Shown here: positions 4,340 through 28,033 of the stretch, one piece after another
Position numbering within the stretch: the first letter of the stretch is position 1
How the letters are laid out: each line of letters opens with the position of its first letter
Origin: a virus
IMG/VR virus record: IMGVR_UViG_3300020478_001251
Coordinates: 1 to 64,000 of that record
DNA length: 64,000 nt
Direction: 5' to 3' (one strand)
The notes under the pieces: generated by a model
Told to the model about the DNA's origin: nothing
The model's input: only the letters and a program-made list of their open reading frames with translations
Database searches by the model: none
Program-made: the position numbers and the translations under genes

Positions 4340-4403
4340 CAAACACTCCAATTTTCTATACAATTTAGTATCATATATAAATATAAAAACTTCAAATAAA
4401 TCG

Positions 4404-8230: not shown

Positions 8231-8245
8231 ATATATAAATATACT

Positions 8246-23284: not shown

Positions 23285-23914
23285 TTAAAATACTACCCAC
23301 TTACCTGTGCCATAATGTGGATAGACCCTCTCATACTGATAATATAAAACATCATCAGGTATAGGACTTCTTTTTTTCCAAGTTTCTAATGTAGGTGTAT
23401 TTGTAGATATACCATTATCTTCTACTACAAACTTTATTGGTAAATCAAAGTTTTTAGAATATTTGTAAGCAAGATGAAAATCTCCTGTTTCAAATGCCAT
23501 ATCTCCAACAAAACACCACACCATCCTATCACTCTTTTTGTTCTTTAAAGATTGTGCAACTCCAACCGCTATAGGTAGAATACCACCAACGATTGCACTC
23601 GATACAAAATTATGAGAAGAATTTGTTAATGTTATACTCATTCCACTTAAAATATCAGATTCTAATTTATCTGGACTAACACCATGTAATAATGCATGAT
23701 AATGACTTCTCCAAGTAGAGAATACCCAATCTTCTGGATTTACATATTGAAATATTTCAATAAGTTGTTTTTCATTACCACCAGATAAATGAACTGGACC
23801 TGTAATTTTCCCATTCTCCCAAGAGTCTTTTATTTTAAGTTCGAATTCTTTTAAGAAATCTTCTGTAAGTGTGATTTCTCTTTGTTTTTTTAAATCTTTT
23901 ATATTTTTCACCAT
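23285..23914 (-). CDS. ThDP-dependent enzyme, E1-alpha-like subunit
   Basis: GPVHLSGGNE, STWRSHYH, SAIVGG, ThDP motif GDMAFETG...VEDN. Confidence 0.85.
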   Translation of the reverse strand: MVKNIKDLKKQREITLTEDFLKEFELKIKDSWENGKITGPVHLSGGNEKQLIEIFQYVNPEDWVFSTWRSHYHALLHGVSPDKLESDILSGMSITLTNSSHNFVSSAIVGGILPIAVGVAQSLKNKKSDRMVWCFVGDMAFETGDFHLAYKYSKNFDLPIKFVVEDNGISTNTPTLETWKKRSPIPDDVLYYQYERVYPHYGTGKWVVF

Positions 23915-26409: not shown

Positions 26410-27310
26410 AATATTCTATTGTTTCCTTTATCCCAACTTCCAATGAATGACTTCTTCTGAATCCATATTCTTCCATCCTTGTGGTATCCATCTGTCTTCT
26501 CATATCACCATTTGGTTTTGTTGTATCATAATCTATTTCTTGATTATAATGATTTGCAATTATTTCTGCAATATCTGATATTCTAACTTCCTCACCACTA
26601 CCAAGATTTATTGTATCATTAATTTTATTTTGAACCATATATAACATACCACGAGCAACATCTTTTGAATAAATAAAATCTCTTATAGGTGAACCATCTC
26701 CCCATACCTCTAATATATCATTGTTGTCGTGATATGCTTTTTTAATTAATGAAGCTATGACCGTAGATTCATCACCAAAATTATCATAAGGCCCGTAAAT
26801 ATTTGCGGGTCTAACAATGGATATATTTTTATAATCGTTTGTAATACTAATTGCTTCACAACTTAACTCTCCCATTCGTTTTATATATGCAGGAATTTTA
26901 TCATTTGGACTTGGAACTTTATTCCATACATCATCTTCTTTATAATACTCACTTGGTGGATAAACACCAATCGAACTTGTATATAGAAACCAATCTGGTT
27001 TCCATTGTCCAACCGCCTGTATAACATTTGTATCAAATTGTAACATCGGTAAGTAATCAGCTGGTGATTCCTTTACTCTTAATGGTGAACCCTTTATTCC
27101 TGCTAAGTGATAAACATGATTATAATCTGCAACGATACTTGCATTAGTTTTAAAGGTCATATCACAAGGTTCATAATCAACATTAGCTGGTAAATCTTGT
27201 GGAATACTATAACCTACATCTGCAACACAAACTTCATCATAAACTATGGAACACAACTCTGTAAGTTGTCTTCCAACCATTCCTCTTCCACCTATTATTA
27301 ACGCTTTCAT
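26393..27310 (-). CDS. NAD(P)-dependent NDP-sugar epimerase/reductase (WcaG-like)
   Basis: LIIGGRGMVG, RPANIYGPYDNF, VWGDGSPIRDFIYSKD, DTTKPNG. The catalytic YxxxK appears as PAYIK. Confidence 0.85.
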   Translation of the reverse strand: MKALIIGGRGMVGRQLTELCSIVYDEVCVADVGYSIPQDLPANVDYEPCDMTFKTNASIVADYNHVYHLAGIKGSPLRVKESPADYLPMLQFDTNVIQAVGQWKPDWFLYTSSIGVYPPSEYYKEDDVWNKVPSPNDKIPAYIKRMGELSCEAISITNDYKNISIVRPANIYGPYDNFGDESTVIASLIKKAYHDNNDILEVWGDGSPIRDFIYSKDVARGMLYMVQNKINDTINLGSGEEVRISDIAEIIANHYNQEIDYDTTKPNGDMRRQMDTTRMEEYGFRRSHSLEVGIKETIEYYESIQ

Positions 27311-27891
27311 TAGTATCCGTACCTATCTACATATTCAACAAATATACTTGGTTTTGCATTTGGTTCTAAAAACTTTTTATAAGCAGGAATTATATCTTCA
27401 GGAGTTTTTAATTCTACAACATCAACATACTTTAACATTAACTTAAACGCTTCTGTATAATTTGATTTATGTTGTATACCAGGGTCTATCGGTGAACTTG
27501 TTGGAACTGCAACTCTAATACCAACTACTGGATTAAAATCACCTTGTGAATATTCTTTAAGTTTATCTAAATGTGTACATAATTGATTTGCAGCTAAAAT
27601 TAAGAAATCCCATCGTGGATAAAAAGATAATGGTCGATAACCATCTAATGCCAATCCATTACAAAACCCAAGTTGAAATTCCTCTGCGACTGGCATTTCA
27701 ATCATTTGTTTCTCTGTAACATTTTTTAATGTAGATGACATAGGATTACCTGGAAAAACTATTTGTTGACCGACAAAAATAACTCTTTCATCTTTTGATA
27801 AAAAAGTCATTGCATCAGTTAAATTATCTTTATAGGTTGATTTTGCATTACCAACTTGAATATTTTTCAAGTCATCTTTCTTGATGTCCAT
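27310..27891 (-). CDS. ThDP-dependent enzyme, E1-beta/transketolase pyrimidine-binding subunit (no C-terminal domain)
   Basis: VGQQI, EMPVAEEFQLGFCNGLALDG, DFLILAANQL, GIQH. Confidence 0.85.
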   Translation of the reverse strand: MDIKKDDLKNIQVGNAKSTYKDNLTDAMTFLSKDERVIFVGQQIVFPGNPMSSTLKNVTEKQMIEMPVAEEFQLGFCNGLALDGYRPLSFYPRWDFLILAANQLCTHLDKLKEYSQGDFNPVVGIRVAVPTSSPIDPGIQHKSNYTEAFKLMLKYVDVVELKTPEDIIPAYKKFLEPNAKPSIFVEYVDRYGY

Positions 27892-28003
27892 AACTATTGC
27901 CTCCCATAGACGAAGGCATCTTTAAATGCCTCCCGTTATTTTTTATAGTCTAATAGTGGGTTAGGACTTTCAGGAATCTCACCCGAGTTATCACTATATG
28001 ACT
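27892..28003 (-). promoter_or_regulatory. Structured 5' leader with alternative Shine-Dalgarno-sequestering hairpins (riboswitch-like)
   Basis: Nested stem-loop at 28003-27947, then ACGGGAGGCAU/AUGCCUUCGU, whose 3' arm can alternatively pair with the SD GGGAGGCA. Confidence 0.55.
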
Positions 28004-28033
28004 CTTCATATATAAATATCTATAATCTCAATT

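Follow-up and report, generated by a model that had tools for sequence, protein, structure and literature searches.

The 142-nt gap at positions 27892-28033 of the window (the whole stretch of phage DNA analysed here, which comprises the first 64 kb of an IMG/VR virus record of 83,277 bp and 30.5% G+C) is, judged by sequence comparison, a real, conserved and structured cis-regulatory leader of a kind absent from Rfam. The initial annotation of this DNA had proposed a novel cis-regulatory RNA at this site, and the proposal is supported by a conserved covarying domain, a coherent gene association and the lack of an Rfam family. Covariation and modelled folds lead us to consider it probable that the leader acts as a new riboswitch-like OFF switch in which a pseudoknot does the switching and a metabolite is the most likely effector. 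Three marks of a riboswitch were found together in it, namely a covarying structured domain, a consistent placement in the 5' UTR of functionally related genes, and a predicted platform of mutually exclusive pairings that is coupled to the domain via the pseudoknot.

Genomic setting and parts of the leader

The ORFs of the record are nearly all on the minus strand, and its portal and large-terminase (TerL) genes indicate a tailed phage; among cultured phages, TerL places Microcystis phage Mel-JY01 (55% identity) and Flavobacterium phage immuto (54%) nearest. The gap sits within a long array of sugar-modifying genes. As had been claimed, it is GC-rich (35% G+C, against 30.5% for the record) and the longest gap of the island, being the only one of at least 40 nt between 18303 and 40799. 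Its upstream neighbour is a 2OG-Fe(II) oxygenase-like gene, and the E1-beta-like gene on its other side is followed without gaps by SDR, SGNH-like, SDR, E1-alpha-like, PhyH, SDR, RmlC and methyltransferase genes. Across 14 studies, 20 listed sequencing runs contain the stretch covered by the window, and all are labelled marine, seawater or aquatic. Two RNA runs cover small parts of it, one of them with 151-nt contigs at 27667-27942 that have a depth of 2 and tell neither strand nor ends. Across two marine DNA runs, which consist of contigs and have low coverage, strain differences were seen in flanking genes (e.g. at 27577, 28143 and 28541) and none is listed within 27892-28033.

Read on the minus strand, the gap holds in order a promoter-like box, a structured domain of 77 nt (28003-27927) and a platform with a duplicated Shine-Dalgarno (SD) sequence:

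28018-28011, minus strand: promoter-like box TATTTATA (wider form TA[TC]TTATATA), 7 nt upstream of the structured domain
28003-27947, minus strand: helical core, from the RNAalifold consensus of 11 sequences with pair counts on 21 distinct sequences
28003-28000 with 27950-27947, minus strand: P0, AGUC/GACU, invariant
27997-27992 with 27958-27953, minus strand: P1, AUAGUG/CACUAU, 6 bp, with four covarying pairs
27991-27986, minus strand: J1/2, AUAACU
27985-27982 with 27974-27971, minus strand: P2, CGGG/CCUG with the loop UGAGAUU, three covarying pairs
27970-27966, minus strand: J2, AAAGU
27965-27958, minus strand: proposed 5' strand of the pseudoknot, CCUAACCC, anti-SD-like with AA bulged, supported by the covarying column pairs 75-115 and 80-112
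27946-27935, minus strand: A-rich linker AUAAAAAAUAAC between P0 and the tail, from the alignments
27934-27927, minus strand: putative switching tail, the first GGGAGGCA copy, either 3' strand of the pseudoknot or 5' arm of an anti-sequestor hairpin with 27919-27912
27919-27912, minus strand: anti-SD segment AUGCCUUC, complementary to both GGGAGGCA copies and predicted to pair with the tail or the SD copy
27905-27898, minus strand: second GGGAGGCA copy, the SD of the E1-beta-like gene, 6 nt before its AUG (27891-27889)
27310-27891, minus strand: E1-beta-like gene (Transket_pyr, 193 aa), a ThDP enzyme subunit with the PYR domain only, by Pfam, NCBIfam and the ORF map; putatively the first controlled gene

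The outer stem of the initial annotation, AGUC-AU-AUAGUG (28003-27992) with CACUAU-UA-GACU (27958-27947), was located as the inverted repeat I2 (12 nt, 83% complementary), and the duplication of GGGAGGCA, with one complementary segment able to pair with either copy, was likewise found on the minus strand where it had been placed. These are the only two copies of GGGAGGCA in the 64-kb window, for which 0.44 would be expected; 9 of 100 shuffles give at least two. The minus-strand RNA of the gap has a folding energy of -34.9 kcal/mol (z -2.51), which 2 of 200 shuffles equalled. Two small ORFs, of 19 codons (AUG 28008) and 15 codons (AUG 27919), were rejected as the reason for conservation, as they are generally absent from relatives. 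The AUG of the shorter one (27919-27917) lies inside the anti-SD segment, 9 nt after the first GGGAGG, and opens an out-of-frame frame that overlaps the main start (27874-27919, minus strand); a similar 15-codon ORF exists in one relative (L007) and not in the others, and it is thus probably incidental. A repeat element was rejected too, for a DNA search of the phage's own record returned only the locus itself and two matches of 14-16 nt to the promoter box.

The box upstream of the domain is likely a phage promoter, as far as its distribution in the sequence tells. In the 83-kb record, the sense strand has six copies of TA[TC]TTATATA against one on the opposite strand, and five of the six sense copies are intergenic, though ORFs cover 96.6% of that strand and only 3.4% of it is intergenic:

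4376-4383, 8234-8241 and 28011-28018 of the window, sense strand: intergenic TA[TC]TTATATA boxes
75016-75023 and 77932-77939 of the record, sense strand: intergenic TA[TC]TTATATA boxes

In the relatives examined, a similar box stands 3-7 nt before AGUC, with a looser form in L126. The core of T4 late promoters, TATAAATA, gives TATTTATA when reverse-complemented. Beyond the window, at 74835-75038 of the record, the same promoter-like box is followed by a second long intergenic gap (204 nt) with GC-rich hairpin-like sequence, in which our covariance model of the leader (R1) has no match.

Conserved fold and proposed pseudoknot

The model alignment has 23 rows, 21 of them distinct, and the duplicates were left out of the counts; it was fitted to the structure of the covariance model and therefore favours that structure. 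RNAalifold on 11 sequences gave the three helices P0, P1 (6 bp) and P2, and the 21 distinct sequences show compensatory changes at four positions of P1 and three of P2. P0 never varies, so that covariation lends it no support. An Rfam scan and a covariation test on collected homologous leaders, as the initial annotation had proposed, thus returned no Rfam match and covariation in both P1 and P2. The inner hairpin described there stands as CGGG-UGAGAUU-CCUG at 27985-27971, without its fifth pair U-A, which is not kept in relatives. Its loop, which had been called T-loop-like, is not a conserved feature, since relatives show UAACCAAU, UUCG or a longer hairpin instead; P2 itself varies as CGGG/CCUG, CGAG/CUUG, GGG/CCC, CUC-UUCG-GAG and longer hairpins. 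The unpaired stretches (A/C)UAAC, AAAG and CC-N-AA-CC are strongly conserved, and the A-rich linker is 8-12 nt long in relatives, with AUAA at its start in all of them. The GG-N-GGCA tail is present in 21 of the 21 distinct members, which is partly enforced by the retrieval patterns, yet is true of the protein-found members too.

When the columns were scanned for covariation, two pairs came up that the nested structure does not contain. Added to four invariant C-G pairs, they give a pseudoknot between CC-N-AA-CC-N, just 5' of the 3' strand of P1, and the tail N'-GG-N'-GG; pseudoknots lie outside what Infernal models. Column pair 75-115 is UA in 10 sequences, AU in 6, CG in 2 and unpaired in 3, and column pair 80-112 is CG in 13, GC in 4, unpaired in 1 and a gap in 3. 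With the pseudoknot included, 97.4% of the cells are paired in the 21 distinct sequences, against 35-50% with slid partners. Compensatory changes occur in 9 of 19 pairs, a number reached by 1 of 500 shuffles in a control that ignores relatedness, and the covariation score is 0.322 against 0.119 +/- 0.015 (21 distinct sequences, relatedness again ignored). G-U pairs, among them column pair 22-66 in 12 sequences, are compatible with the sense-strand RNA only. A change from C to G in column 80 has its counterpart in tail column 112 rather than in P1 column 14, which favours the pseudoknot over a sixth P1 pair. The exceptions at 75-115 are U.U in three distinct rows (the L123 clade), which a shifted ACCC/GGGU register may cover, and those at 80-112 are one U.U and, by reading of the sequences, two A.C. 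We regard the pseudoknot as supported but not proven by these comparisons. Its topology would be that of an H-type pseudoknot, in which P0/P1 form stem 1, P2 with (A/C)UAAC and AAAG forms loop 1, and the A-rich linker is loop 3, crossing the P0/P1 groove.

Relatives and gene association

The domain is present in a single copy in each of 22 other IMG/VR phage records and in each of 6 marine metagenome contigs; 21 distinct sequences were aligned. Loci were retrieved through alignment of close E1-beta homologues, and the six nearest E1-beta relatives (marine metagenomes, 79-87% amino acid identity) all have the domain directly after the same box. The second half of the feature described in the initial annotation, i.e. 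two GGGAGGCA copies with UGCCUUC, is confined among these six closest relatives to L007, besides the window. Degenerate pattern scans of IMG/VR matched 7, 8 and 22 records, and two further members (L105 and L112) were reached without any pattern, via the neighbouring SDR gene and the covariance model. The patterns fix AAAG.CC.AACC, GACTATAA and GG.GGCA, the very positions used to retrieve most members, and invariance at these positions is therefore partly circular; it is independent only for the protein-found members, which are the window, L007, L008, L011, L012, L105 and L112 (L095 record).

At E<=1, with E-values that are rough for this model, R1 gave one match in the phage's own record, in each of five whole records, and in two of three further motif-bearing records; one of the single-match records has 216 kb and is rated 100% complete. 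The third of the three had an extra match of 13.5 bits (E 0.9), which is taken as noise. Among the 84 E1-beta loci L004-L087, the 78 more distant ones gave no R1 match at E<=1, and in the SDR relatives L106-L111 the gene lies inside operons and the leader is absent. R1 found no copy in Mel-JY01 or immuto, blastn searches of cultured phages in GenBank with the wider locus and with two leaders gave nothing or only short spurious matches, and exact leader strings had 0 matches in IMG/VR. Two scans across 185,579 prokaryote species, each represented by one genome, gave 0 matches; these used exact patterns only, so that this number is not proof of absence. In 8 of the 10 motif-bearing records tested, TerL is 71-84% identical to that of the window, indicating that the leader family belongs to one marine phage lineage with genomes of roughly 200 kb. 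One lineage and 21 distinct sequences also mean few independent evolutionary events.

The domain always lies between a promoter-like box and a gene of an NDP-sugar pathway, which varies as follows:

Window and L007-L012: E1-beta-like (Transket_pyr)
L088 and L105, and L089 by N-terminal similarity: SDR of the GDP_Man_Dehyd type
L094 and L118, and L091 and L120 by N-terminal similarity: dTDP_sugar_isom (RmlC-like)
L119, L122 and L124, and L095 by N-terminal similarity: DUF6071/SGNH-like
L123 clade: another SDR
L126: B12-binding radical SAM enzyme

The upstream genes differ between loci, indicating that the element travels with the start of the sugar operon rather than with a particular gene; a 426-aa upstream gene thought to be common to the window and L118 was rejected, as the two have no similarity. 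The idea that the leader gates sugar-nucleotide genes is thus upheld as far as the association is concerned, which is coherent across loci, while the gating itself is a reading of predicted folds. In the window, the E1-alpha-like gene (23285-23914, 209 aa) and the E1-beta-like gene (27310-27891, 193 aa) are 3.4 kb apart. In relatives the two are adjacent or in another order, L088 having SDR, RmlC-like, E1-alpha-like and E1-beta-like genes and L011 having E1-beta before E1-alpha. This variation indicates that the island has been reshuffled while the leader stays at its head.

Predicted switching in the expression platform

Twenty leaders were folded from the tail to the start codon, once with an unconstrained tail and once with the first six tail bases blocked to mimic the pseudoknot. 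With the tail blocked, the SD is fully paired in 19 of the 20 predicted folds; the twentieth is L008, where the tail itself is the SD, and in L008-L010 the pseudoknot would hence hide the SD directly. A terminator-like run of at least five U follows the hairpin in 17 of 20 leaders, the exceptions being the window, L007 and L008. With the tail free, it pairs with the 5' arm of the SD hairpin, and the SD is fully unpaired in 11 of the 20 predicted folds. In other predictions the effect is smaller or lacking: three of four SD bases remain paired in the window, L012, L088 and L126, the SD of L007 is fully paired even when the tail is unblocked, and L091 forms its terminator and SD hairpins in both tail states. 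In the window, the free tail is predicted to form a hairpin with 27919-27912 (-14.7 kcal/mol), and the blocked tail gives way to a hairpin of 27918-27912 with 27904-27898 (-10.4 kcal/mol) in which the SD is fully paired.

The sequence of the paired platform segments varies by clade and their complementarity stays. The mutual exclusion of anti-anti-SD, anti-SD and SD that had been suggested for the window therefore holds more widely, as this three-part competition recurs in the predicted folds of relatives in different sequence guises. The free and blocked states are 0.1-4.3 kcal/mol apart, and the pseudoknot duplex has an energy of only -2.5 to -5.4 kcal/mol, which would place the pseudoknot with the sequestor hairpin near the anti-sequestor hairpin in energy. 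With so small a gap between states and so weak a duplex, the system looks poised and in need of extra stabilisation.

Two observations concern the starts of the downstream genes. In L126 (4036-4102, minus strand), a 7-codon mini-ORF (MVTKEVI) lies between the terminator-like hairpin and the B12-radical-SAM gene, and its stop overlaps the gene start (UGAUG); the arrangement suggests translational coupling, as a further variant of the platform. In L011 (2929-3543), the database protein P0008 starts with MGGTIKFKNMVSPKGDFF, residues that are translated from the leader tail and platform (AUGGGUGGCA...). The protein probably begins instead at the AUG that follows the SD hairpin and U-run (MQGNTLNPKS), as P0009 does.

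Proposed mechanism and alternative explanations

The mechanism that we propose is as follows. The gap would be the 5' leader of a phage mRNA whose presumed start lies directly downstream of the TATTTATA box. The first 77 nt of this leader would fold as a conserved sensor, in which P0 and P1 form one long helix enclosing the variable P2 and the conserved unpaired stretches. The GG-N-GGCA tail would then have two possible partners, CC-N-AA-CC-N, with which it gives the H-type pseudoknot, and AUGCCUUC further downstream. As long as the tail is engaged in the pseudoknot, AUGCCUUC would be free to pair with the second GGGAGGCA, i.e. the ribosome-binding site, and translation of the E1-beta-like protein would be blocked; in most relatives, the hairpin that sequesters the SD would double as an intrinsic terminator. 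When the pseudoknot opens, the tail would take AUGCCUUC and the ribosome-binding site would be free. An effector would stabilise the weak pseudoknot; the most likely candidate is a small metabolite with a connection to the NDP-sugar pathway, which would make the leader an OFF riboswitch.

The same RNA and switch might instead answer to a protein, such as a phage or host RNA-binding regulator, or to another macromolecule, for example in the timing of infection, with the T4 gp32 and RegA operators and ribosomal-protein leaders as models. Confinement to one phage lineage, with 0 matches in the two prokaryote pattern scans, is what a regulator-operator pair would be expected to show, the element is present in one copy per genome and at a promoter, and the data are compatible with a small ligand and a protein alike. 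We nevertheless consider a protein effector unlikely, because the junction is compact, many unpaired bases are invariant, and the platforms are modular (direct SD, SD sequestor, terminator), a modularity typical of metabolite riboswitches; moreover, no candidate gene for an RNA-binding protein accompanies the element in the loci read, whose upstream genes differ. A constitutive 5' structure that stabilises or processes the mRNA without sensing, its alternative pairings being incidental to a strong SD and a terminator-like hairpin, would suit the position at the presumed 5' end, the invariant P0, and predicted folds that do not change with the tail state (L091). However, a stabilising hairpin needs no set of about 25 invariant unpaired bases, and across very different sequences the extension of the tail covaries with the 5' arm of the hairpin that follows (GGCAUUU/AAAUGCC, GGCACU/AGUGUC, GGCAUCAA/UUGAUGCC), which makes this account improbable.

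The layout of promoter, structured RNA, terminator-like hairpin and long co-directional operon of the polysaccharide type also recalls cis-acting antitermination RNAs such as HK022 put and Bacillus EAR, which modify RNA polymerase to read through terminators, here to traverse a long sugar operon; polysaccharide operons often use antitermination. Against this stand the window, L007 and L008-L010, which have no terminator-like U-run at all, the conserved competition between tail and terminator arm, which such a mechanism does not need, and the failure of any Rfam antitermination family to match, and we rate processive antitermination as very unlikely. The initial annotation had itself raised the doubt that the GC-rich hairpin could be merely an intrinsic terminator of the plus strand, to which the inverted repeats as a DNA-level operator may be added. 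There is indeed one terminator-like site on the plus strand, at 27914-27931, followed by CCCGTTATTT. However, nearly all ORFs are on the minus strand and no plus-strand genes converge on the site, the plus-strand fold of the gap is no better than those of shuffles (z -0.76, 42 of 200), and the hairpin is absent in L008-L010 and has other sequences elsewhere, while the minus-strand structure is conserved. The G-U pairs and the asymmetric conserved interior fit a sense-strand RNA, and both notions, terminator and operator, are hardly credible.

The metabolite-responsive OFF switch thus remains our preferred reading. A narrower version of it, that the leader represents a riboswitch class found in phages only and responding to a nucleotide-sugar or other branched-chain sugar pathway intermediate, and would be the first RNA sensor for NDP-sugar metabolism, is a speculation that we hold to be possible but doubtful. 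On that reading, the phage would throttle a glycan-modification operon of about 10-20 kb by end-product feedback. A 2022 review finds riboswitches almost missing from the control of sugar metabolism and names glmS as the one prominent exception (PMC9971707), and in 2010 the marine wcaG and manA motifs were described as riboswitch candidates only (PMC2864571). The leader would be the second candidate with a link to NDP-sugar genes, and one of unrelated structure. It marks a likely promoter and a putative control point inside a large phage glycosylation island, and is relevant to the use that these abundant marine phages make of their auxiliary sugar genes. At 77 nt it is compact, and it offers clear mutational handles in the pseudoknot, the tail and the anti-SD segment, and the natural variants (direct SD capture, SD sequestration and termination) make it directly testable in vitro.

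Comparison with known RNA families

The statement that the leader matches no known riboswitch class was confirmed: with the 4227 models of Rfam 15, which include known riboswitches and small ribozymes, neither gathering nor relaxed thresholds gave any family in the window or in 19 loci. The best Rfam match near the gap is a snoRNA model on the other strand (22.1 bits against a cut-off of 50). Literature searches gave no prior description, though the supplements of Fremin et al. 2023, with over ten thousand candidate viral structured RNAs, may list the motif unnamed (PMC10690425). The wcaG RNA motif (RF01761) is described as an orphan riboswitch candidate from marine metagenomes and phages, located in 5' UTRs of exopolysaccharide and NDP-sugar genes (PMC2864571). 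Its niche and gene theme are nearly identical to those of our leader. Identity with wcaG was rejected, as RF01761 (cut-off 42 bits) has no match at E<=10 in the phage's own record and none in the loci. The wcaG consensus consists of two similar hairpins, each followed by UGGUG or UGGCG, whereas the leader has nested P0/P1/P2 and the proposed pseudoknot, and wcaG was reported from T4-like cyanophages, whereas the phages with the leader are of another lineage. According to the 2022 review, glmS is the only validated RNA sensor dedicated to the supply of sugar building blocks (PMC9971707). It is a self-cleaving ribozyme that senses GlcN6P in bacteria, while the leader has no sign of cleavage and no Rfam match.

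In its proposed mode of action, the leader resembles the H-type pseudoknot riboswitches preQ1-I/II, SAM-II/V and NAD+-II, which sequester the Shine-Dalgarno sequence. Like them, it has a small putative aptamer, an SD-like G tail that would close the pseudoknot, an A-rich strand and a proposed OFF logic, and in some leaders (L008-L010) the SD would be sequestered directly, as it is in those riboswitches. Unlike them, it has an extra enclosed P2, a long P0/P1 helix and another gene context, and no Rfam model of these classes matches it. Downstream of the sensor, the same three-part competition among a switching sequence, a competitor and a terminator or SD hairpin is seen in classical terminator/antiterminator and SD/anti-SD platforms. 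The platform is therefore ordinary, and the novelty of the leader is the sensor domain in front of it.
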